From positions 1 through 43,866 of the forward strand of contig CAIJUJ010000033.1 in assembly GCA_903823865.1 (NCBI GenBank): a stretch of 43,866 nucleotides of DNA, read 5' to 3'. A program made the position numbers and the translations under genes. How positions within the stretch are numbered: position 1 is the first letter of the stretch; every line of letters begins with the position of its first letter. This document shows positions 10,368 through 34,357 of the stretch, piece by piece. The notes below the pieces were generated by a model that was given only the letters and a program-made list of their open reading frames with translations, had not been told where the DNA came from and made no database searches. The stretch comes from an uncultured bacterium (GTDB lineage Bacteria; Patescibacteriota; Minisyncoccia; Phycocordibacterales; GWA1-40-21).

Positions 10368-10505
10368 ACCCATTAAAGTTTTTGCCAATGTTTATTAAAA
10401 ATTTATTTATAAACACATCGTAAATATTTATGATTATGTTAAACTATCTGTACTGTTTATAATGTCAAAAATAAACAATTTTTATTGGCAAAAATTTTCT
10501 CGGGT
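10368..10505 (+). repeat. 138-bp inverted-arm promoter element, copy 1 (before murJ)
   Basis: ACCCATTAAAGTTTTTGCCAAT…ATTGGCAAAAATTTTCTCGGGT-AA-ATG. Confidence 0.9.
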
Positions 10506-23650: not shown

Positions 23651-23799
23651 TGCTCCTCCTAGGTTTTGACAGTAAAAAAATGAAGCTTGTACATCTGAAT
23701 AAATGGTATAATTATCAAATAAGTTTGTCAAACAATAAGGCGGGCGCTTCGCGCCCGCCTTTTTACTGTTTAGTTTTTTCATTCAATAGGTGAATATTC

Positions 23800-23937
23800 A
23801 CCCGCTAAAGTTTTTGCCAATGTTTGTTAAAAATTGCTTTTAAAAACATAATCATAATTTATATATTTATATGCTATAATTTTCTTAATCATAAGGTCGG
23901 AACAAACAATTTTTATTGGCAAAAATTTTTCTCGGGT
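23800..23937 (+). repeat. 138-bp inverted-arm promoter element, copy 2 (before ftsQ)
   Basis: ACCCGCTAAAGTTTTTGCCAATGTTTGTTAAAAATT…TGCTATAAT…AACAAACAATTTTTATTGGCAAAAATTTTTCTCGGGT-AA-ATG. Confidence 0.9.
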
Positions 23938-23939
23938 AA

Positions 23940-24764
23940 ATGTCATACCAAAGATCAAATATAAGCACATCTTTACGCAGAAAGAGGCAAATGAGTCTTT
24001 TAAAAAAGATTGGAGTTTATTTTATTTTTATTTTATTTTTTATTTGTTCAGCAAATTATGGTTTGACTGCAAATGCGGTTCGTATTAAAAATGTTGTTGT
24101 TTCTGGAAATAATTCTGTTGCAACTGAAGATATTTTAAAAATTGTAAATACTGAACTCGACGAAGTTTATCTTAAAGTTACACCTACCGACAATATTCTT
24201 TTGCTTAGAAGTTCAACGATTGAAAATAAAGTTTTGAACACTTATAAAAAAATAGGAAAGGTTGATGTTATCATTCGTGGAATTACCAGTATTGAGATTG
24301 TGGTCACAGAAAGAAAATCTGATAATTTATGGTGTAAAGGTACACCGGCAGAAAGTAAAGGTTGTTATTTTATGGACTCGAGTGGATTTATTTTTGAAGA
24401 TGCTCCGATTTTTTCAAACAATAGTTTCCCAGAATATTTTGGTTTAATTTCAGACACAAACCCAATAGGCCAAATATATTTTGGTGATAATTTTAAAAAT
24501 ATTTCGAATTTATACAATGCGCTAAAAACAATGTCGTTTCAGCCACAGTATTTTAATGCTTTAAATGAACATGAATATGAGGTTTATATTTTGGGTGGAG
24601 GCAAAATTTTGATAAATGACAAAAAATCTTTTGAATCATCACTGACAAATCTTCAAGCTTTGGTTGATAACAAATACATTGCAAATGATAGTGCATCATT
24701 AAAGAAAATTAAATATGTTGATTTGAGATTTGGAAATAAAGTGAATTTTGAGTTGAATAAATAG
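23940..24764 (+). CDS. ftsQ: Cell division protein FtsQ/DivIB
   Basis: Basic N-terminus, one TM, POTRA (IKNVVVSGN), C-terminal YVDLRFGNKV. Confidence 0.8.
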   Translation: MSYQRSNISTSLRRKRQMSLLKKIGVYFIFILFFICSANYGLTANAVRIKNVVVSGNNSVATEDILKIVNTELDEVYLKVTPTDNILLLRSSTIENKVLNTYKKIGKVDVIIRGITSIEIVVTERKSDNLWCKGTPAESKGCYFMDSSGFIFEDAPIFSNNSFPEYFGLISDTNPIGQIYFGDNFKNISNLYNALKTMSFQPQYFNALNEHEYEVYILGGGKILINDKKSFESSLTNLQALVDNKYIANDSASLKKIKYVDLRFGNKVNFELNK

Positions 24765-24765
24765 G

Positions 24766-24838
24766 TGTCATTCCCGCGTAGGCGGGAATCTAGGTTGTCT
24801 TGTATTAATTATGGATTCCCGCCTACGCGGGAATGACA
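24766..24838. repeat. 73-bp dRS3/REP-like double palindrome, copy 1
   Basis: TGTCATTCCCGCGTAGGCGGGAATC…GATTCCCGCCTACGCGGGAATGACA. Confidence 0.85.
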
Positions 24839-24841
24839 ATA

Positions 24842-26740
24842 CTAAATCAACGAATCTGGATCAACATTTACCAGCACATCCATAGGCAAGTTTTTTAATT
24901 TCTCATACAAATCTTTTTCTGGCCATTTACTAGATACGATTTTAATTATTCCATTTACACCAAATTTTCCCTTTGATTGAGGAATAAAAGCTGGGAATAT
25001 ATCAATTTCAAATGGCTCAATCATTCTTTGAATATCTTGCACTAGTCCGAGCACCTCGTTTCTATTACCAATAATTGAAATTTTTATGAGTGTAGTAAAA
25101 GGTGGAAAATGTAATTTTTCTCTATCGTCAATTTCGTCTCTATAAAAATCTACAAGATTTCCTTTCACCGCATAATCAAAAACTTTCTGCGTTATATCTC
25201 TTGTTTGAATAATAAAATGTTTGTCAGTAATTGAACGGATTTTTAAAAGTATATTCAAAATTCTTTCATTGATTCTAAAATCAGGGATTGAAAAGAATGA
25301 ATCTATTGAAACAACCGCAGTGTTTTCTATTTTTTCTGTCAGATATAAAAGCGCCATTTCTGTTCCTACTAAAATTCCTTGTGGTGAATTATAAAATTTC
25401 TCTGCAACTTCCTCAGCTTTCTTGTGTGTTTTTGTTGCATCAGCATCAATTCTAAAAATGTTTGCTTTTGGATAAAGCTCTTTAACTTTTTCTTCCACAA
25501 GTTCAGAACCAATACCAAGTGTCGCAAGTCTCCATCCTCCACAATAAGAACATTTTTCTACAGCACTTCTTCTTTCTCCACATTTATGACAAAGAAAGAA
25601 ATTTTCTGCTGTAGATCTATGAAGTACCGTATGCGCTCCACAAGAATTACATTTTACGACATTTCCACAGTCTGCACATACAGTAGAAGGGGAAAGTCCT
25701 CTTCTTCCGGAAAAAATAAACATGTGTTCATTGTTTTCTATATTATCTTGTATTTTTTTTATGAACTCTTCACTTAAAACTGAAAAATATGTTTTCGTAT
25801 CATTTTTTTTGATAGTTCTCATATCTATGATTTCCTGCGTTGAGGTTGTCAGTGAGCGAAATTTTAAAGACATAAGTTCAACAAGCTCTCCTTTTTTTTG
25901 TCTCCAAATAGTATCTGTTCGCAAAAGCAAGTCCCCAAAAATTATTTTTGAATTTGTTTTTGTGGCAAACATTTCGGCAAACTTTCTGATATCTATATAA
26001 GGTCTCGTTTGCATTTTATAAGACCTAGAATTTTCTTTGTCCAAAATTATCGTTCCAATATTACTTTTTGGAATTGAAAGAAAACTTCCGGTGCCAATAA
26101 TAAGTAAAGGATGTTTTTCAGCTAGAATTTTATTTATAGTGTTTAAAATTTCTTTTTTACCCATTGAACCATGAAGAATATATGTGTATTGTTCAATTCC
26201 TTTGCAAAGGGATTCTTTTGCTTTTTTTATATCTTGGATGGTTGGTAAACAAAAAAATATTGAAGAGTTTTTTGCAAATTCCTCTCTTATGATACTTTTA
26301 TATTGAGCGTATCTATCCTCGTCAGTTGATTGAATTACAAATTTTTCTGCTTTTGTCGTTTTTTTGTGCTCCTCAATTTTGTGCGTTCCAAGTTTTATTT
26401 TTTCAGTATTTTCGAGTAAAACTTTTGGAACAAGAGAATTGAGTACAGAGCCTATCGAGCCAACATAATAGTTTGCAACTGTTTCAGCGGTTTCAATAAA
26501 AATTTTACTCAATAAATGAGAACATTTTGTTTTTGATATTTTTTTGAGAGCAAAAGAAGAATTTTTAATTTCTGTTTTTGATTCTCCAACATCTTTAGAA
26601 CTAATTACTAATGCTGGAATAATTCTCTTTCTCAATGGAACTTTTATTATTGAACCAACAGAAACATCACTTCCAGAAAAATATGAAAGCGTATCGTTTT
26701 TTATGCCTCTTGCTATAGGTATTACTTCAAGTATTTTCAT
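24842..26740 (-). CDS. priA: Primosomal protein N' (PriA) with degenerate helicase motifs
   Basis: N-terminal 3'-binding domain (LSY…GSIIKVPL), RRG + four CxxC, GIGSE, ILVGT, FPPF. Confidence 0.9.
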   Translation of the reverse strand: MKILEVIPIARGIKNDTLSYFSGSDVSVGSIIKVPLRKRIIPALVISSKDVGESKTEIKNSSFALKKISKTKCSHLLSKIFIETAETVANYYVGSIGSVLNSLVPKVLLENTEKIKLGTHKIEEHKKTTKAEKFVIQSTDEDRYAQYKSIIREEFAKNSSIFFCLPTIQDIKKAKESLCKGIEQYTYILHGSMGKKEILNTINKILAEKHPLLIIGTGSFLSIPKSNIGTIILDKENSRSYKMQTRPYIDIRKFAEMFATKTNSKIIFGDLLLRTDTIWRQKKGELVELMSLKFRSLTTSTQEIIDMRTIKKNDTKTYFSVLSEEFIKKIQDNIENNEHMFIFSGRRGLSPSTVCADCGNVVKCNSCGAHTVLHRSTAENFFLCHKCGERRSAVEKCSYCGGWRLATLGIGSELVEEKVKELYPKANIFRIDADATKTHKKAEEVAEKFYNSPQGILVGTEMALLYLTEKIENTAVVSIDSFFSIPDFRINERILNILLKIRSITDKHFIIQTRDITQKVFDYAVKGNLVDFYRDEIDDREKLHFPPFTTLIKISIIGNRNEVLGLVQDIQRMIEPFEIDIFPAFIPQSKGKFGVNGIIKIVSSKWPEKDLYEKLKNLPMDVLVNVDPDSLI

Positions 26741-26742
26741 TT

Positions 26743-26878
26743 ACCCGAGAAAATTTTTGCCAATAAAAATTGTTTGTTCGACTATATAATACAGTGAAAT
26801 TGTATCACAAAATCACCTTATCATGATATTGCCAAATTATTCAATTTTTAACAAATATTGGCAAAAACTTTAACGGGT
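26743..26878 (-). repeat. 136-bp inverted-arm promoter element, copy 3 (before priA)
   Basis: Reverse complement reads ACCCGTTAAAGTTTTTGCCAAT…TGATACAAT…ATTGGCAAAAATTTTCTCGGGT-AA-ATG. Confidence 0.9.
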
Positions 26879-26941
26879 GAATAATGACAGAAAATAGGTA
26901 TTTTTCAACCACTTAATATAAAAATTTGATATAATCTAAAT

Positions 26942-27559
26942 ATGCTTAAAATTTACATTGCGCGCCATGGTCAAAACGTAGATAACAAAAATGGTATTTT
27001 AAATGGTCATCGAGATGAACCACTTACTACTTTAGGTGAGAAACAGGCACAAGAAGTAGCTGAAGAAATCAAGAAAGATAATTTGTATTTTGATGTTGTT
27101 TACTCATCACCCCTTCAAAGAGCATATAAAACTGCAAAAATTATTTCTGATATATCAAATCAGTCACAACCTGTCGTATTAAATGAACTTATTGAAAGGG
27201 ATTTCGGAGTAATGACTGGAATTGAAGCTAAGAGAATTGAAGAATTGTGTGCACCTGAAATTATAAAATCAAAAACTATTACTTATTTTTTAAATCCAAA
27301 AGGTGCTGAAACTTTTGAAGATCTTCTAGAACGTGCTAAAAAACTTCTTAATTTTATTAAGAAAAATCATAATGATAAGTCAGTTCTTTTAGTTACCCAC
27401 GGAGATTTTGGAAAAATGATTTATGCTGAGTTTTATAAATTACCTTGGAAAAAAGTTCTTACAGATTTTCATTTTGGAAACTCTGAGATCCTGTATCTTT
27501 GTGAAAATTGTGATTTAAACAAAACACGCCTCTTCACCAGCAAACAATATAATCATTAA
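26942..27559 (+). CDS. Histidine phosphatase family protein
   Basis: RHG, SSPLQRA, ERDFG, VTHG. Confidence 0.92.
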   Translation: MLKIYIARHGQNVDNKNGILNGHRDEPLTTLGEKQAQEVAEEIKKDNLYFDVVYSSPLQRAYKTAKIISDISNQSQPVVLNELIERDFGVMTGIEAKRIEELCAPEIIKSKTITYFLNPKGAETFEDLLERAKKLLNFIKKNHNDKSVLLVTHGDFGKMIYAEFYKLPWKKVLTDFHFGNSEILYLCENCDLNKTRLFTSKQYNH

Positions 27560-27581
27560 TCTCTAAGCATTTTAATCTTAG
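27560..27581 (-). repeat. 22-bp duplicate of the murA 3' end
   Basis: TCTCTAAGCATTTTAATCTTAG is identical to 28377-28398. Confidence 0.85.
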
Positions 27582-27612
27582 TCACAAGCTATTTCAATCC
27601 ACTAGGTATTAT

Positions 27613-27642
27613 TTGACTTTTTTCTGGGGGGGGGGCTACAAT
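27613..27642 (+). promoter_or_regulatory. Sigma70 promoter with a G10 tract in the spacer
   Basis: TTGACT-TTTTTCT-G10-C-TACAAT (18-nt spacer). Confidence 0.7.
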
Positions 27643-27678
27643 TATAGTGTTAGATTTATTAATTAATATTATAAAAAA

Positions 27679-28317
27679 ATGAAGAATGGACCAGAAAGTT
27701 ATTCACCAGAAGAAATATTAAAAATTGAGAAAAAAAGAACTATATCTGATAGTGATTTGCTTCAAGATGGAGCGGAGTATGTTTTTGATAACAAAAAAAG
27801 TGACAAAAGATTAAAACTATCTGAAACACAATTAAATGATATAACTCCTGATGGTTCAAAGATACAGAAAGAAATTATGGAAGGTAACTTTGAAAATGTA
27901 GAGAAACTAACAGAAATTAATAAAGAAATTGCTAAAATATTATCTTCCTACACTTATCCTGAAAATCACAGAAGGCTTTCTCTAGAAAATTTAAGTTATT
28001 TATCTGATGAATGCGCAGATATATTATTTTCTAATCTCAAAGCCGACGAGGTCCACCTTTCAGGTTTAAAAACTATATCTGATAATGTGGCTAAGAGTAT
28101 AGCAAATTGGTCATATAAAAATAGTCGAAACTTTATTGATCTAGATGGTTTAAATTCAATTTCAGATTCTACAGCAGAAATATTATCGCACCATCATGGG
28201 AATCTCACTCTTAAGGGTTTAACCTCTTTATCTGATAAATCGGGTAGTCTTTTAGCAAGACATTTTGGAGGTGAGCTTCTTATTCCCCAGAGATTTAAGT
28301 CAAAATTAAAAAGATAA
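27679..28317 (+). CDS. Hypothetical protein with 4 LRR-like repeats
   Basis: LSLENLSYLSDECA / LSGLKTISDNVA / LDGLNSISDSTA / LKGLTSLSDKSG. Confidence 0.7.
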   Translation: MKNGPESYSPEEILKIEKKRTISDSDLLQDGAEYVFDNKKSDKRLKLSETQLNDITPDGSKIQKEIMEGNFENVEKLTEINKEIAKILSSYTYPENHRRLSLENLSYLSDECADILFSNLKADEVHLSGLKTISDNVAKSIANWSYKNSRNFIDLDGLNSISDSTAEILSHHHGNLTLKGLTSLSDKSGSLLARHFGGELLIPQRFKSKLKR

Positions 28318-28372
28318 ATAATAATACAAAAGGCTGTTCGCAAAGCGAACCGCCTTTTGTATTTAAAATATT

Positions 28373-29911
28373 TCAGTCTCTAAGCATTTTAATCTTAGCC
28401 CCCAAATTATTTAACCTTTTTGCTATATCTTCATAACCACGATTGATACTATATACATTTCTTAAAATTGATTTTCCTTCGGCGCCGAGCATTCCTATCA
28501 AAATAATTGCAGCTGGGCGAAGAGCTGGAGGACAGATAATTTCTGCTGGTTTTAGCTTAGTTTTTCCATTTACGTAAAATCTATGCTGGTCTGCCAAGAT
28601 GGTGTCTGCGCCAAGTTTGTCGAGCTCCTTATAATGAATTGCACGATTTTCATAAACCCAGTCATGAATCAATGTTTGCCCTTCTGCTTGTGTGGCAATA
28701 AGCGCAAAGAAGGGAAGATTGTCTATATTTAATCCTGGATAAGGTCTAGATTCAATTTTGTCGTGAAGTGCTTTGAGCGTGGAAGGAAAAGTTTTGATAT
28801 CAACAAGGTCTGTTTTACCATTCAAAGCTTTATACTTTTTTGAGATTTTAAATTTAAAACCCATTTTTTTGAGTTTAAGTAATTCTATTTCAAGAAAATC
28901 AATTGGACATCTTTCAATTGTAATACCAGATTTTGTAACAGCAGCAACTGCAATAAAAAACATTGTATCAATAGGGTCTTCCGCGAGATAGTAAGTAATA
29001 TTTTTATTTATTTCTTTTACTCCATGTATTGTAATTGTCGTGGTACCAACTCCATCAATCTGAATTCCAAGTTCTTGCAAAAAGAAACACAAATCTTGTA
29101 CTTGATAGTTTGATGAAGCAAATTTAATTGTCGTTTTTCCAGGAATAAGTGCTGCAGCCATAATAGCGTTTTCTGTCACTGTATCTCCAGATTCATATAA
29201 TGCAAATTCTGCAGGCTTGAGTTTTTCTCTCGTGATTTCATAACTAAAATTTTTTGTTTTAATATTAACGCCAAAATTTTCAAGTGCAAAAAAATGTGGA
29301 GTAACAGTCCTATTTCCTAGCTTGCATCCACCTGAGTGGGGAAGAGAAAATTTTTTGTACATATGAATCAGCGGGCCAATAAACATAATGACACTGCGAG
29401 TTCTCTGTGCCGACTCTTTATTTATTTTTTTAATATCAATTTTTTTAGCTTCAATTTCCAAATCATTACCAACCCATTTGATTGAAACGCCAATGCTAGA
29501 CAGCGCTTCTATTATTCTATAAACCTCTTCAATTTTTGGAACATTTTTTAGGTTTGTTTTTCCTTTATTCATAAGTGATGCGGAAATAATTCCCATTGCA
29601 CCGTTTTTTGATGTTTTTGTAATAATGTTCCCAAAAAGTTTATGTCCGCCATCTATTTCAAAGTTGATTGCGCCAGTAGAGAGACTCATTATTTCGCTAC
29701 CAAGTACTTCACTGATTTTTGTTATCATTTCTGTTGTGAGATTTTGTTCACCACTTTCGATTCTGGCTATAACACTTTGTGTTGTACCAAGCTTTTCTGC
29801 GAATGCTGTTTGTGTAAAACCTTTTCTTTCGCGAATCTCTGCTATTAAATTTCCTATTTGAGATAATTTGCTTGCCCCGTTTGAATTTTCACTTGGTTTT
29901 AAATTTGACAT
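28373..29911 (-). CDS. murA: UDP-N-acetylglucosamine 1-carboxyvinyltransferase with N-terminal XRE HTH
   Basis: IRERKGFTQTAFAEKLGTTQSVIARIESG HTH; SKNG, GGCKLGNR catalytic Cys loop, PYPG, INRGYE. Confidence 0.93.
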   Translation of the reverse strand: MSNLKPSENSNGASKLSQIGNLIAEIRERKGFTQTAFAEKLGTTQSVIARIESGEQNLTTEMITKISEVLGSEIMSLSTGAINFEIDGGHKLFGNIITKTSKNGAMGIISASLMNKGKTNLKNVPKIEEVYRIIEALSSIGVSIKWVGNDLEIEAKKIDIKKINKESAQRTRSVIMFIGPLIHMYKKFSLPHSGGCKLGNRTVTPHFFALENFGVNIKTKNFSYEITREKLKPAEFALYESGDTVTENAIMAAALIPGKTTIKFASSNYQVQDLCFFLQELGIQIDGVGTTTITIHGVKEINKNITYYLAEDPIDTMFFIAVAAVTKSGITIERCPIDFLEIELLKLKKMGFKFKISKKYKALNGKTDLVDIKTFPSTLKALHDKIESRPYPGLNIDNLPFFALIATQAEGQTLIHDWVYENRAIHYKELDKLGADTILADQHRFYVNGKTKLKPAEIICPPALRPAAIILIGMLGAEGKSILRNVYSINRGYEDIAKRLNNLGAKIKMLRD

Positions 29912-29988
29912 GACGTTGGTATTTATTAAATATAAGTTATTAAAAAATATTGATAATTGTTAAAAAATTCTTTACGGGGTTTGACATT

Positions 29989-30121
29989 GACCGAGAAAAT
30001 TTTTGCTGATGAAAATGTGTTGATATTAAATGATTAGTAAATTTTTATTAATATTATGTTTATCAAAAGGTATGTCTGTAGGCTATTCATTTTCAACACA
30101 TCAGCAAAAACTTTAACGGGT
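29989..30121 (-). repeat. 133-bp inverted-arm element, divergent copy 4 (upstream of murA)
   Basis: Reverse complement reads ACCCGTTAAAGTTTTTGCTGATGTGTTGAAAAT…CAACACATTTTCATCAGCAAAAATTTTCTCGGTC, with compensatory changes in both arms. Confidence 0.85.
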
Positions 30122-30343
30122 AAATTATAGCATATCGGCTATAAAATAGAATAGTTTAAAAGTAGCAAGTTGTAAGTTAAAAAGTAAATTTATAATTTCC
30201 AATCTACGCCATGGCGTAGATTAGAATTAATACATTTTTGGTGAGTTTGCAATTAATCAAAAAAAAGCTAATATATGTTTATAAGATTTCAGTTGCATTT
30301 TACAACTTTCAACTTAGAACTTTTAACTTTAAAACTTAATCAT

Positions 30344-31357
30344 ATGTCATTTTTTGTTAGAAAACTTGGAATAGATTTGGGAACTGCAAATACACTTGTG
30401 TTTGTGCCTGGCAAAGGAGTCGTTCTTTTTGAACCTTCTGTTGTTGCTATTTCAGAACAAGATAACAAAATTCTCGCTGTTGGTGTGGAGGCAAAAAATA
30501 TGATTGGAAAAACTCCAGACAGCATCATTGCTTATAGACCAATGAAAGATGGTGTTATTGCTGACTATCGTGTCACCGAAGCTATGCTCCGCTATTTTAT
30601 GGATAAAGCTTTAGGGAAGTGGAATATTTTTAAACCAGAAGTGATGGTGTCAGTTCCAGCTGGAGTTTCTTCCACAGAAAGAAGAGCTGTTGTTGAAGCT
30701 GCTATTCGTGCTGGTGCAAAAAATGCTTATGTTGTGAAAGAGCCGATTCTTGCTGCTATCGGTGCAGGAATCCCTATTTATGAACCAATGGGTCACATGA
30801 TTGTGGATATTGGAGGAGGAACAACTGATGTTGCCGTTATTTCACTTGGTGGAATTGTTGCTTCAACTTCTGTAAAATGTGCCGGAAATAAAATTGATGC
30901 TGCGATTGCCGATTATATTAAAAAAACTTTTAATCTTGCGATTGGAGATAAAACCGCCGAACAAATTAAAATCACAATTGGAAGTGCTGTGCCGATGGAA
31001 GAAGAATTGTCAGTGATTATAAAAGGAAGAGATTTTTTGACAGGCCTTCCTCGCTCAACTGAAATTAAAACAAATGAAATTGTAAAAGGAATTTCAAAAG
31101 AGCTTAAAGATATGATAAAAGCGATTAAAGATGTTTTACAGGAAACTCCGCCAGAGCTTGCCGCAGATATTATTGACAATGGAATTATTATGACAGGTGG
31201 ATCTTCTCAGCTTAGAAATCTTACAGAACTTGTTTTTAGAAGAGTTGGGGTAAAAGCTGTTGTTGCAAAAGACCCGCTTTACTGTGTTGCAAAGGGGACT
31301 GGTGTTGCACTTGAGCATTTAGATACTTATAAAAAATCTATCATAGCTAAAAGATAA
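30344..31357 (+). CDS. mreB: Rod-shape actin MreB/Mbl paralog 1
   Basis: LGIDLGTANT, RPMKDGVIAD, DIGGGTTD, TGG. Confidence 0.95.
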   Translation: MSFFVRKLGIDLGTANTLVFVPGKGVVLFEPSVVAISEQDNKILAVGVEAKNMIGKTPDSIIAYRPMKDGVIADYRVTEAMLRYFMDKALGKWNIFKPEVMVSVPAGVSSTERRAVVEAAIRAGAKNAYVVKEPILAAIGAGIPIYEPMGHMIVDIGGGTTDVAVISLGGIVASTSVKCAGNKIDAAIADYIKKTFNLAIGDKTAEQIKITIGSAVPMEEELSVIIKGRDFLTGLPRSTEIKTNEIVKGISKELKDMIKAIKDVLQETPPELAADIIDNGIIMTGGSSQLRNLTELVFRRVGVKAVVAKDPLYCVAKGTGVALEHLDTYKKSIIAKR

Positions 31358-31374
31358 TAAAATAATGACCTCCT

Positions 31375-31960
31375 CCCCGGGTTCCGCTACGCTGCGCCCG
31401 GGGTTTCCTTTTCAAGCATGAGGATTCTAGTTGAACAATCTGAGTTTTTGTGGCACATCTTTCTTGCCCTGCCATTTTATATATTTTCGTACTTGAGTTT
31501 CGTTCAATCCTATTGTTGATGAAAAATATCCAACACTCCAGATGCCGTCTTTTTCGAGGTATATCTCGCGTATAAATTTAAATTTTGAACGCAAATATCT
31601 ACTTGATATTGCTTTCAGTTTTCCGACAGCATCTGAGATTGTGATATTTGGTGGTACTTCAATCTGCATGTGAACATGATCCTCATCAGTATTCAAGGTT
31701 TCAATCCAGAGTGTTGGATATTTTTTCACAGTCGCGTACAATATTTTCTTCAACTCTATTAGTACATATGGCTTCAGTATTTTTCTTCTATACTTTGTAC
31801 CCCATATTACGTGGTATTGATGTTGATATGTGGAGTGATTTAGATTACGAATCCTCATGGAAACAGCATATCACGTTTAGTGAACATGGTGGTACTTTCT
31901 ACCCCCGCCCTCCGGAGTTCAAACAAATACCCTTATCTTGGGGATGTTCCGGGCGGGGTT
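31375..31960 (-). mobile_element. IS200/IS605-family element (tnpA only) with subterminal hairpins
   Basis: tnpA flanked by CCCCGGG…CCCGGGG (31375-31403) and ACCCCGCCC…GGGCGGGGT (31901-31959); exact ends not determined. Confidence 0.7.
31427..31858 (-). CDS. tnpA: IS200-type Y1 HUH transposase
   Basis: YHVIWGTKYRR, DHVHM (HUH), WSVGYF, KYIKWQ (catalytic Tyr). Confidence 0.95.
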   Translation of the reverse strand: MRIRNLNHSTYQHQYHVIWGTKYRRKILKPYVLIELKKILYATVKKYPTLWIETLNTDEDHVHMQIEVPPNITISDAVGKLKAISSRYLRSKFKFIREIYLEKDGIWSVGYFSSTIGLNETQVRKYIKWQGKKDVPQKLRLFN

Positions 31961-31969
31961 CTGGGAAAG

Positions 31970-32005
31970 AAAAGGTGGGGCGACCTTCGGTCGCCCCACC
32001 TTTTT
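31970..32005. terminator. Bidirectional GC hairpin
   Basis: AAAAGGTGGGGCGACC-TTC-GGTCGCCCCACCTTTT. Confidence 0.7.
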
Positions 32006-32027
32006 AATTTGTCTATTTCTGCTATTT

Positions 32028-32167
32028 ACCCGATAAAGTTTTTGCCAATGTTTATCAAAAATTTCTTACTCTAAACTAAATTACAGTTAATATTATTTTG
32101 TGCTACAATTTTGATATCATCACGCGAGCAGAATAAACAATTTTTATTGGCAAAAATTTTCTCGGGT
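32028..32167 (+). repeat. 140-bp inverted-arm promoter element, copy 5 (before holB)
   Basis: ACCCGATAAAGTTTTTGCCAAT…TGCTACAAT…ATTGGCAAAAATTTTCTCGGGT; ATG 12 nt later. Confidence 0.9.
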
Positions 32168-32179
32168 GAATAAATAGTA

Positions 32180-32908
32180 ATGAAAAGCTTAAACTTATCA
32201 ATAAAAAACAACAACTTACACCACGCCTATTGTATTTTGGGTGATTCTACTGATGTTATAAATGAACTAAAAACATTCTTTTTGAAAGAACTAAATTTTT
32301 CTGTGGCAGACAACCCAGATTATTGGTACGGAAAATTTGATGTCATGGATATTGAAGATGGCAGAGCAATAAAAAACTCACACCAAAATAAGCCAATCGA
32401 AGGAGATAAAAAAATATTTGTAGTTTCAGCAAATTTTATTACCGAAAAAGCTCAAAATGCAATGTTAAAACTTTTTGAAGAACCAAGAGGCGATACGCAT
32501 TTCTTTTTGGTATTGCCGTCGTTAAGTAATATTATTCCAACTTTCCGCTCAAGGTTTTTTGTTATTGATGCAAATGAGTCCAACGATTCAATAATAAATC
32601 CAAAAGAATTTTTACAAATGTCTTTAGGAAAGAGAATGGATTCTGTGAAAAAGATTTGCGGGAATGTTTTCCACGAAAAGTCTAGAGACCTCGTGGCAAG
32701 CGATGATGAAAAAAGTAAAATCGAAATCATTAAATTTATCAATGCGCTCGAAGTTGAACTTAAGGAAAGAATTGATTTTTTGAAAACCAGCAAGGGTGAA
32801 ATAAAAGTTTTTGAAGAAATTGAGAAAGTGCGACAATATGCTGGTGAGCAATCTCCATCATTAAAAATGTTATTAGAACATTTATCATTAGTTTTACCTG
32901 TATCTTGA
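32180..32908 (+). CDS. holB: DNA polymerase III delta'-like clamp-loader subunit (short)
   Basis: HHAY, NPD, AQNAMLKLFEEP, PTFRSR. Confidence 0.8.
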   Translation: MKSLNLSIKNNNLHHAYCILGDSTDVINELKTFFLKELNFSVADNPDYWYGKFDVMDIEDGRAIKNSHQNKPIEGDKKIFVVSANFITEKAQNAMLKLFEEPRGDTHFFLVLPSLSNIIPTFRSRFFVIDANESNDSIINPKEFLQMSLGKRMDSVKKICGNVFHEKSRDLVASDDEKSKIEIIKFINALEVELKERIDFLKTSKGEIKVFEEIEKVRQYAGEQSPSLKMLLEHLSLVLPVS

Positions 32909-32910
32909 AT

Positions 32911-32983
32911 TGTCATTCCCGCGAAGGCGGGAATCTAGGTTGTATTTAATTAGTTTTGGATTCCCGCCTTCGCGAGAATGATA
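32911..32983. repeat. 73-bp dRS3/REP-like double palindrome, copy 2
   Basis: TGTCATTCCCGCGAAGGCGGGAATC…GATTCCCGCCTTCGCGAGAATGATA. Confidence 0.85.
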
Positions 32984-33029
32984 CAAAAACTATTTTGTTT
33001 TTATATTTATTTTAAGTTATAATATTCAT

Positions 33030-33581
33030 ATGTCATACGATTTTAAAAAATTAAAAGATAGTATTAAAGGTTCGGAAGAATGGTTGAAAAAAGAATATTC
33101 TGGTCTAAGAACTGGTATTGCGAGTCCATCTATTTTAGATGGTGTGCAAGTTGAGGTTTATGGTTCAAGAATGCCGATAAACCAAGTTGCAAATATTGGT
33201 ATTGAAGATGCACGAGTTATCAGAATTACTCCTTGGGATAAATCACAATCAAAAGCAATTGAAAAAGCCATCACAGTTGCCAATCTTGGTGTGTCTGTTG
33301 GTATCGATGATAAAGGTGTCAGAATATTTTTCCCGGAATTAACGGGTGACAGAAGGGCACTACTCATAAAAACAGCAAAAGCTAAACTTGAAGATGCAAA
33401 AGTAAATATTAGGGGTTTTAGAGACATCGCTTCTACAGAAATAGATACACAAGAGAAAAAAGGCGGAATGGGAGAAGACGATAAATTTAGATACAAAAAA
33501 GAAATGCAAAAAATTGTTGATGAAGGAAATGCATCCCTTGAAGCACTGCTTGTTAAAAAAGAGAAAGAAATTAATTCCTAG
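33030..33581 (+). CDS. frr: Ribosome recycling factor
   Basis: LRTGIASPSILD, YGSRMPINQVA, PWDK, PELT..RR, KEKEI. Confidence 0.96.
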   Translation: MSYDFKKLKDSIKGSEEWLKKEYSGLRTGIASPSILDGVQVEVYGSRMPINQVANIGIEDARVIRITPWDKSQSKAIEKAITVANLGVSVGIDDKGVRIFFPELTGDRRALLIKTAKAKLEDAKVNIRGFRDIASTEIDTQEKKGGMGEDDKFRYKKEMQKIVDEGNASLEALLVKKEKEINS

Positions 33582-33716
33582 CCCGTTAAAGTTTTTGCCA
33601 ATGTTTGTTAAAAATTGGTCATATACACCAAAACATGATTTTGTATAAAAGTAATTTAAAACAGTTGATTGTAACGTCGAGACAAACAATTTTTATTGGC
33701 AAAAATTTTCTCGGGT
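33581..33716 (+). repeat. 136-bp inverted-arm element, copy 6 (before the peptidase-rseP operon)
   Basis: GCCCGTTAAAGTTTTTGCCAATGTTTGTTAAAAATT…GACAAACAATTTTTATTGGCAAAAATTTTCTCGGGT-AA-ATG. Confidence 0.9.
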
Positions 33717-33718
33717 AA

Positions 33719-34357
33719 ATGATTTATAAAATTAAAGAGTATAAAAATAAGCTAATTGAAAAAGCTTATCGTGATGGGATGAAGGAATCTAATGCCTTTT
33801 TTGGCACCAACTGGGTTTATGGTTTACCAAATGTTCTTATTTTGAATAATAGGAAAGAAATAGATAACTTTATGGGTCAGAAAAGTATGGGAAGAAGCGT
33901 TGGTTTTTCTGGTCACAGAATTGTATACATACTTGATAATAATAATATGGAAAAAGAAAGTATTCACAAAAAACTTTCTGATGCAGATTATTATACTCTG
34001 ATCAAACATGAGATTTGTCATTTGTTTTATTATAAGTATTCTCATAATTGTATAAAACCCAAATGGCTTTGGGAGGGGGTATCAATATATTTGTCAAAAC
34101 AAACTGTGTATACAAAACCAAAATCATTTTTGATGTTCATTGATTCGGATACAAAAAATGTTGACAGTGCTTTTTATGAAGGTGGTTTTGCTGTCAAATT
34201 GCTAATTGAAAATTTTGGTAAGAAAAAAATACTTAAACTCATTTCTCGTTCCAGCGAGGTAAAAAATAAAAATGAATTTTCAAAATTGTTTAAAAAAATA
34301 TACAATTTTGATTTAAATTACAAAAATTTTAATAATTTGTTAAAAAAAAATAAATAA
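33719..34357 (+). CDS. Peptidase MA-like (gluzincin) protein
   Basis: HEICH…PKWLWEGVSIY. Confidence 0.75.
   Translation: MIYKIKEYKNKLIEKAYRDGMKESNAFFGTNWVYGLPNVLILNNRKEIDNFMGQKSMGRSVGFSGHRIVYILDNNNMEKESIHKKLSDADYYTLIKHEICHLFYYKYSHNCIKPKWLWEGVSIYLSKQTVYTKPKSFLMFIDSDTKNVDSAFYEGGFAVKLLIENFGKKKILKLISRSSEVKNKNEFSKLFKKIYNFDLNYKNFNNLLKKNK

Follow-up and report, generated by a model that had tools for sequence, protein, structure and literature searches.

The stretch of DNA analysed in this study (hereafter the window) is a whole contig of 43,866 nucleotides (nt), CAIJUJ010000033.1, from the 677-kb genome (33% G+C) of an uncultured patescibacterium. Six inverted-arm elements of about 135 nt each were found in it by repeat finding and direct reading. 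Two adjacent blocks of the left arm of these elements, A and B, have their complements in the right arm in the swapped order, and both pairings are kept by compensatory changes. The elements separate the -10 promoter box of ordinary genes from the start codon, are present or absent at orthologous sites, and share their termini with a 295-nt form that encodes a minimal GIY-YIG domain. We tentatively suggest that the fold is selected mainly as single-stranded DNA.

Structure of the six copies

The two ends of the element are unlike. The distal (D) end reads ACCCG-TT-AAAG-TTTTT, followed by a 6-nt block S and then A and B, and the proximal (P) end, on the same strand, reads A'-B'-S'-AAAAATTTT-CT-CGGGT. 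In the D to P direction copies 1, 2, 5 and 6 lie on the plus strand, and copies 3 and 4 are inverted and lie on the minus strand. The unlike ends and the two orientations go beyond a first-pass annotation, in which the swapped blocks had been described from the window; its sequence details for copies 1-6 were all correct, including the joint change of the blocks in copy 4 with the order kept. Copies 1, 2, 3, 5 and 6 are alike in pairing AAAAATT with AATTTTT and GCCAAT with ATTGGC, while A is GTTTAT(T/C) with the partner AATAAAC in copies 1 and 5, and (G/A)TTTGTT with the partner (A/G)ACAAAC in copies 2, 3 and 6. Copy 4 has its own S, A and B blocks, each with an exact partner, and reads, from D to P, ACCCG TT AAAGTTTTT GCTGAT (S) GTGTT(G) (A) GAAAAT (B) ... 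CAACAC (A') ATTTTC (B') ATCAGC (S') AAAAATTTT CT CGGTC. Its parts are as follows.

29989..30121, minus strand: copy 4, 133 nt, xxTGAY-like subfamily, with the D end at 30121 and the P end at 29989
30117..30121, minus strand: 5' strand of outer helix a, ACCCG, whose partner at 29989-29993 is the degenerate CGGTC in this copy
30106..30114, minus strand: block b, AAAGTTTTT, holding the G of the invariant G.U/G.T pair with b' (74/74 aligned rows)
30100..30105, minus strand: S, GCTGAT, a covarying stem block (direct reading and alignments)
30094..30099, minus strand: A, GTGTTG, its last G common to B (direct reading and alignment)
30089..30094, minus strand: B, GAAAAT (direct reading and alignment)
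30017..30022, minus strand: A', CAACAC, paired with A in the minimum-free-energy (MFE) fold
30011..30016, minus strand: B', ATTTTC, complementary to B and a 6-nt bulge in the MFE fold
30005..30010, minus strand: S', ATCAGC (direct reading)
29996..30004, minus strand: b', AAAAATTTT (direct reading)

Collection and distribution of copies

The genome from which the window comes (G000) yielded 31 raw arm pairs, three of which were dropped as overlapping or unorientable, and the remaining 28 paired copies are spread over 15 contigs. A 20-mer of the P arm, with one mismatch allowed, matched 25 times in this genome, and its reversed control did not match. The same 20-mer was present in 15 of the 25 other genomes of the genus and in 5 of the 11 from the family's other genera, with 0/24 among genomes from outside the family; 0-1 matches were obtained with the reversed pattern over the 61 genomes. 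From the flanks of the P-arm matches in the source genome and its relatives, 149 distinct elements were gathered, which fall into length classes of 75-95, 125-142, 143-260 and 295 nt with termini common to all. Because the elements were selected by their outer arms only, the inner blocks are unbiased. Copy 4, with its degenerate P end, lies outside the arm-pattern search and was added by hand, and one source-genome copy (contig C29:43079-43212) is not in the alignments. Five copies in the source genome are alike in the interior as well, which points to a recent burst. In three loci of relatives (L109, L114 and L118) nested elements and head-to-tail arrays were seen, the P end of one element abutting the D end of the next (..CTCGGGT-GA/TC-ACCCG..).

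Permuted blocks and covariation

In all six window copies the D arm has the order S-A-B and the reverse complement of the P arm the order S-B-A. Among the 97 short elements (125-142 nt) of the source genome and its relatives, this rotation of A and B was found with at most two non-identical positions in 92, and in 85 under a stricter score; the nested register matched at just 2-8 of 13 positions, and none of the 97 had a simply nested arm. Among the 12 weaker rows are one flipped element, two elements that contain an additional insert, and four 'mini-hairpin' types that keep B:B' and have a local pairing of A. The permuted layout is limited to this length class. These figures come from an anchored block parse, and a MAFFT alignment of all 97 was unfit for column-wise pair counts, as A is 5-8 nt and B 6-7 nt long and the subfamilies are 1-2 columns off. 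Covariation was counted in three length-homogeneous sub-alignments of 29, 22 and 23 rows (74 of the 97); the other 23 were left out since their block lengths shift columns out of register.

The covariation of A with A' and of B with B' that the first-pass annotation had expected in a larger alignment was found in these 74 rows, with 96-100% pairing and two-sided changes. Over the three sub-alignments A:A' was paired in 98.0, 100 and 99.1% and B:B' in 99.5, 100 and 100%, against 41-62% for the whole structure when the 3' partner was slid by 1-3 columns. Two-sided changes occur at 3/7 pairs of A:A' in one subset (GC to AU in four rows, UA to CG twice) and at 1/5 in a second. In B:B' they are AU to GC at two pairs (four and three rows), all in a single GTTATT A background. 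Across the subfamilies there are at least eight A types and at least six B types, each with its own partner, and four B types were found inside one A background. At the orthologous murJ locus, GTTTATT/AATAAAC in two species corresponds to GCTTATT/AATAAGC in a third, an in-place double change. Helix S covaries heavily, and the outer 16 nt are invariant, including the G.U/G.T pair and a 2x2 mismatch. The alignments thus support the view that both pairings are maintained by more than shared descent, and the two-sided changes, together with the double change at murJ, support the earlier proposal that both are under selection. Equally, a single genome contains several variants of S, A and B, an observation that speaks against a plain protein operator and agrees with the proposed recognition of structure.

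Two other partners for the blocks were considered and rejected. Local hairpins within an arm, formed by B' and b' or by b and B, are compatible with the GCCAAY-like subfamily and fail in the GAAGAT, GAAAGT and GAAGGT variants. As for A or B acting as guides for flanking host sequence, A was seen on inspection to be constant across copies with unrelated flanks.

Folding and alternative registers

The RNA fold of copy 4 has a predicted energy of -31.6 kcal/mol (z -5.9, with 0/200 shuffles as good) and its DNA fold one of -20.0 (z -4.8); both contain A:A' with a 6-nt B' bulge. In the predicted RNA folds of the 97 elements, A:A' was formed in 65, B:B' in 15, the nested register in 3 and none of these in 14. 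Constrained folding of 85 elements favoured A:A' by a median of 3.4 kcal/mol (range -6.8 to +10), and A:A' is the predicted ground state. The linker length is 0 nt at both junctions, A|B and A'|B', and all four blocks lie inside helix S. Since A abuts B, and A' abuts B', without a linker inside the closing stem, standard helix geometry suggests that the two pairings are mutually exclusive. The same closing stem would then hold two alternative registers, one with A:A' formed and B' as a bulge, the other with B:B' formed and A as a bulge. A pseudoknot or two slipped registers had been proposed earlier; the slipped registers fit, and a true pseudoknot appears incompatible with the zero-length linkers on the same geometric grounds.

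Wobble asymmetry as an indicator of the selected strand was equivocal. Rfam gave no match at the gathering score over the whole window, and at E values up to 5 no family fell on any copy in 23700-33800.

Coding relatives with a GIY-YIG domain

The 295-nt forms, two in the source genome and six in relatives, have the same a-b-S ends and contain an open reading frame (ORF) that starts right after S, stops at the TAA of CGGGTAAATG and encodes 89 aa. The product matches the Pfam family GIY-YIG (PF01541, E 3e-14), and its nearest solved structures are UPF0213 proteins (E about 0.01). Prokaryotic stand-alone Slx1-like domains are the minimal GIY-YIG form in the classification given by a survey of 2006 (PMC1564403). 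A separate DNA-binding domain was not found in the 89-aa protein, the other Pfam matches overlapping the GIY-YIG residues. The P arm is the C-terminal coding end of this ORF (..ISKNFLG*); in the short elements ..IFIGKNFLG* is still readable in the same frame, and the 143-260-nt intermediates retain relics of the ORF. On the evidence of these shared sequences, the short element is a non-autonomous deletion derivative of the 295-nt GIY-YIG cassette, resembling a miniature inverted-repeat transposable element (MITE).

The intermediate and full forms fold as a nested three-way junction of S, a hairpin H1 and a helix X:X', in which X' is the same stretch as A'-B' and H1 covaries strongly; the order H1 then X was found in 15/19 and 7/8 of these long elements. 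The 75-95-nt class has two small hairpins within the closing stem. A close GIY-YIG ORF was found in 10/17 genomes with at least four elements against 0/44 with at most one, a comparison that is partly circular because the ORF contains the arm.

Some smaller forms were also noted. An 88-nt family member with two hairpins (source genome, C10:6624-6711) has no ORF behind it and a terminator-like hairpin after it, and may represent a small RNA in its own right or a copy left stranded. The same genome contains short hairpins CCCGAAGAAAATTTT..AAAATTTTGACGGG with a run of T after each, at C10:6540-6576, C9 ~2258, C22 ~26676 and C24 ~266; their stems resemble the outer arm of the element, and in relatives (L032, L064) they also lie within elements.

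Position between the -10 box and the start codon

In 19 of the 28 source-genome copies the ATG of a long ORF (104-891 aa) lies 2 nt past CGGGT, and in most of the others it is 4-30 nt off. Among the 146 elements with flanks, the ATG is 2 nt past the end in 88 and 4 nt past it in 13, and in 101 it is the P-type end that is turned towards the ATG. Exactly 2 nt separate a -10-like hexamer from the following ACCCG in 60/146, 38 of them with an upstream TG; the control, a window of eight positions, gave 22. The genes downstream are ordinary and diverse (dnaE, priA, holA, holB, uvrA, xth, comEC, comM-like, pheS, a prfA-type release factor, clpB, RNase J, rnpA, murA, murJ, ftsQ and others). Over the genome, 88 of 457 long ORFs have a -10-like hexamer at the peak spacing of 6-7 nt before the ATG, Shine-Dalgarno-like words occur only rarely, and for these reasons the first genes of operons look leaderless, as judged from the spacing only. 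Because the insertion lies between the -10 box and the start codon, the cassette would be carried as the gene's 5' leader.

There are two subfamilies with two promoter ARRANGEMENTS. In the xxTGAY-like subfamily, which includes copy 4, the host -10 box is at the D end in 33/41 and an internal one is present in 1/41. In the GCCAAY-like subfamily an internal extended -10 (TGnTAnAAT) is directed toward the gene in 31/56, 19-24 nt before the P arm (antisense control 3/97, mean of shuffles 3.2), and a host box is present in 18/56. The main messenger RNA (mRNA) of these 31 copies should therefore omit the distal arm. A -35-like TTGAAA at the A|B junction was rejected as a promoter, having no -10 at the correct spacing. 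At copy 4 the host box TGCTATAAT lies 2 nt before the D end, and in the sister genome (G003), where the element is absent, it lies 6 nt before the murA ATG.

The other copies and the surroundings of copy 4 are listed below.

10368..10505, plus strand: copy 1, upstream of murJ
23800..23937, plus strand: copy 2, upstream of an ftsQ-like gene
26743..26878, minus strand: copy 3, upstream of priA
32028..32167, plus strand: copy 5, upstream of a holB-like gene
33581..33716, plus strand: copy 6, upstream of a peptidase-like gene
30124..30132, minus strand: host extended -10, TGCTATAAT, 2 nt upstream of the D end of copy 4
28373..29911, minus strand: gene downstream of copy 4, with a helix-turn-helix and an EPSP-synthase/MurA-type part, 77 nt from the P end

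The last of these encodes a MurA-type enolpyruvyl transferase that includes an N-terminal HTH_3 domain. Between copy 4 and its ATG (29904-29987) lies an additional 68-nt segment that ends in a solo D-like arm, CCCCGTAAAGAATTTTTT (minus strand); it is flanked by 8-nt direct repeats, TTTGACAT (29904-29911 and 29980-29987), a duplicated start-codon region.

Gain and loss at orthologous sites

At the ftsQ site the element was present in 2 of the 25 loci read, those of the source genome and its sister; the unfilled loci consist of a terminator, TAGTATAAT, a short spacer and the ATG. The priA site is filled in 7 of 25 species by elements of different subfamilies, always between TGTCATTAT and the ATG, and in one species a different inverted-repeat family occupies the same spot; other priA loci have 6-9 nt from the -10 box to the ATG. 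The sister genome (86-94% protein identity) lacks the element at xth, holA, rsmE and priA, and the flanks of these empty sites are otherwise almost the same. An empty and a filled site read, for example, TAGTATAAT-AAAAAG-ATG and TAGTATAAT-TC[element]AA-ATG, and the insertion replaces a spacer of 2-7 nt. The filled and empty orthologous sites show, at the level of sequence, that the element is mobile. The only direct repeats are the 8-nt ones of the degenerate extra segment beside copy 4. At the priA locus of the sister genome GGGTAA is kept before the ATG and may be an excision scar. The murJ element is common to three species, and the sister genome has an ordinary 54-nt promoter there. In five loci (L117, L037, L211, L213 and L214) the interior is flipped relative to the marks in the outer arms. 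This mobility, the derivation from a GIY-YIG mini-gene and the exact span from -10 box to start codon had no counterpart in the first-pass annotation.

Selection on the fold

Based on these results, we favour, with somewhat less than even confidence, the explanation that the fold is selected mainly as single-stranded DNA, the form that a structure-specific nuclease, presumably the family's own GIY-YIG protein acting in trans, would recognise, cut and copy or excise. Single-stranded DNA is preferred because the family is mobile and encodes a nuclease of the structure-specific type, because the outer arms are invariant, like protein-recognised ends, and because copies that should be transcribed mainly without the D arm still preserve the pairing. 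The cassette would insert between the -10 box and the start codon of a leaderless gene, in place of the 2-7-nt spacer, and its single strand would fold on itself in three layers, namely the outer helix a/b, helix S, and A:A' or B:B'. The outer helix, whose sequence is invariant and whose 2x2 mismatch and G.T/G.U are likewise fixed, would probably be the part recognised by protein, and helix S would vary freely as long as pairing is kept. A:A' with B' bulged and B:B' with A bulged would be alternative conformers of the nuclease substrate. Folding of the leader RNA would act as a secondary constraint.

Several observations weigh against this explanation. The collection was made via conserved outer arms, and related genomes are non-independent samples. 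The 89-aa protein lacks a DNA-binding domain, its role in movement being inferred, and a close GIY-YIG ORF was not found in 7 of the 17 element-rich genomes. No target-site duplication or direct repeat was found at the four clean pairs of filled and empty sites (xth, holA, rsmE and priA). The host -10 at the D end of 33 of the 41 xxTGAY-like elements, copy 4 among them, would place the whole element in the mRNA. In most copies B:B' has A/U pairs only, and just 15 of the 97 have it in their MFE fold, against 65 for A:A'. Nor do the wobbles pick a strand: A has seven G.U against six A.C, B has 11 G.U against no A.C with all 11 at a single position, and S6 is C.A in 39/85.

A close rival, possible though on balance doubtful for the family and the better explanation for copy 4 itself, keeps the same element and origin and holds that the fold is selected as RNA, as the 5' leader of an essential gene that otherwise has none. 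The closing helix could pack the insert away near the AUG, or serve as an RNase III substrate whose cleavage restores a short leader, and translation or processing could be tuned by the two registers, acting as a two-state switch or as a co-transcriptional folding pathway. In the same 33 of 41 xxTGAY-like elements, with the host -10 2 nt before the element and the ATG 2 nt after it, the element would be the whole 5' untranslated region. The P-type end faces the ATG in most elements, the invariant G.U and the 2x2 internal loop are in the sense strand, and B:B' has G.U and never A.C; the z score of the RNA fold of copy 4 and an RNase III gene in the genome are also in accordance with it. As the downstream genes are housekeeping genes, the properties of the leader must be under selection. 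However, the internal promoter in 31 of 56 GCCAAY-like elements would exclude the distal arm from the main transcript, the murJ copy with the in-place double change sits directly after the rnpB terminator, and no Rfam family was matched. A helix that ends 3 nt from the AUG is expected to hinder initiation and not to help it, and the start region is equally paired in both registers, so that a switch between them would have no obvious output.

The covariation might also have no function at all, the arms being co-inherited in subfamily lineages or equalised by gene conversion from arm to arm or copy to copy. Many rows are indeed close kin, such as the five near-identical copies of one sublineage in the source genome, counts of alignment cells overstate the number of events, and the flipped interiors mean that arms do recombine. 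This is nevertheless unlikely, since conversion over the a-b-S homology would be expected to nest A and B, of which only 6-7 nt are in register, and none of the 97 elements has drifted to a nested arm; the many A and B types, each with its partner, the four B types in one A background and the double change at the single murJ locus also speak against it. The first-pass annotation had compared the elements with HUH substrates, which would make them REPIN- or PATE-type elements moved by a Y1 transposase (IS200/IS605 TnpA or RAYT). REPINs reportedly consist, according to Bertels and Rainey in 2011, of two inverted arms that form a long hairpin in single-stranded DNA with compensatory changes, and the only Y1_Tnp gene of the genome lies in the window (31427-31858, minus strand, 143 aa, Pfam E 1.4e-28), 170 nt from copy 5. 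That gene, however, has its own GC-rich imperfect palindromes (~31365-31420 and ~31890-31975), unlike the AT-rich arms. Y1_Tnp is present in 14/17 element-rich and 27/44 element-poor genomes (61 in all) and does not track the element; two genomes with 18 and 17 arm matches (G002 and G010, 95% and 97% complete) are without it, and the longer family members encode GIY-YIG and not Y1. Movement by such an enzyme is thus very unlikely. Even less probable is that the arms are double-stranded sites, either an operator pair of a promoter-looping regulator or attC-like recombination sites of integrons, the other comparison made earlier. The arms do flank promoters, with centres about 95 bp apart in the 135-nt class, and their outer 16 nt are invariant. 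Yet S, A and B vary between copies in one genome and in every case match the partner in the same copy, a fixed helical phasing is incompatible with lengths of 75-295 nt, the copies are dispersed upstream of housekeeping start codons and not in cassette arrays, and the two ends carry no attC-like box pair.

Comparison with known systems

Like REPINs with RAYT and the IS200/IS605-derived PATEs, the present elements are non-autonomous, have inverted arms around a variable spacer, measure roughly 100-140 nt, occur in tens of copies, persist in lineages and keep a single-strand hairpin by compensatory change. They differ in the GIY-YIG instead of the Y1 HUH enzyme, in arms that are not short GC-rich palindromes, in the fixed placement relative to -10 and ATG, and in the permuted inner blocks. 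Measured against the usual marks of that group, a Y1 gene is present, the element ends are unlike its flanks and co-occurrence is absent.

Correia elements (CREE) of Neisseria and other transcribed MITEs (ERIC, RUP, BOX) have terminal inverted repeats, are 100-155 bp long and lie near gene starts; they are co-transcribed, can supply promoters and give hairpin RNAs cut by RNase III. The present family shares the terminal inverted repeats and the position near gene starts, but has no TA duplication, and it has an autonomous-looking relative, an exact insertion point relative to the transcription start and permuted A and B. As in MITEs generally, both termini are common with a coding element and presence/absence polymorphism was found, and target-site duplication was not.

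The free-standing GIY-YIG homing genes of phages (seg/mob) are likewise small genes between host genes that cause minimal disturbance, with overlapping stop and start. Here the catalytic domain is present in a protein of 89 aa without the separate DNA-binding domain of homing endonucleases, long inverted arms bound the gene, and many non-coding derivatives occupy many loci per genome. Integron attC sites have a variable centre and imperfect inverted arms too, and recognition of a fold with unpaired marks would apply to both. In contrast, the present elements have no R''/R' box pair and no cassette array and lie upstream of ORFs (integron integrase was not searched for). A scan for the R''/R' boxes gave one near-match, GTTAAAG, at the 5' end and no 3' partner, and the likeness to attC does not hold in box pair, position or array arrangement. 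Group II introns, in the IBS2-IBS1/EBS2-EBS1 pairing, show the same A-B...A'-B' order with two covarying pairings of 6-7 nt; their partners lie in separate loops and pair simultaneously, whereas here the blocks abut without a linker. No intron or ribozyme family was matched in Rfam by the window or the copies.

A more far-reaching proposal, rather unlikely in its full form, is that the family represents a new class of mobile element, a minimal structure-specific GIY-YIG hairpin cassette that targets melted DNA between -10 and +1 of leaderless promoters and has a bistable single-stranded substrate. Its two conformers might be, for example, a 'cut' and a 'resting' form, and its non-coding offspring would serve as the standard 5' leaders, and in one subfamily as the promoters, of about a tenth of operons in such reduced genomes. 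The element itself would be a clear natural case of two short covarying pairings in a mutually forbidding order, a two-state fold open to mutate-and-rescue. It would also tie stand-alone GIY-YIG proteins of the Slx1/UPF0213 type, a large and unexplained family, to a mobile hairpin-bounded cassette and a candidate substrate. In ultra-small Patescibacteria, whose genes look mostly leaderless, the transcription-start region of essential genes (dnaE, priA, murA, pheS and others) can give way to a selfish insertion that is tolerated, which bears on the start of transcription and translation in this group and on change in small genomes. Full-text literature searches, with supplementary files outside their scope, gave no account of such cassettes, and the combination of a minimal GIY-YIG gene, hairpin ends, permuted covarying blocks and exact start-site placement appears to be new.

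Other repeat families

Other small GIY-YIG paralogues (40-47% identical) with their own, different inverted repeats occur in the source genome at C8:9565-9810 and C4:4841-5089, and a repeat family of the paralogue type (CCCGTTAGA../..TCTAACGGG) lies directly before the priA ATG in another species (L187, G009). GC-rich palindrome doublets (..TCATTCCCGCG.AGGCGGGAATC..) of REPIN-like appearance lie directly past gene ends at 24766-24836 and 32911-32981 of the window and have weak, sub-threshold Rfam matches to a Wolbachia small RNA family. Comparable palindromes stand on either side of a GIY-YIG paralogue in the source genome (C8:37408-37602).

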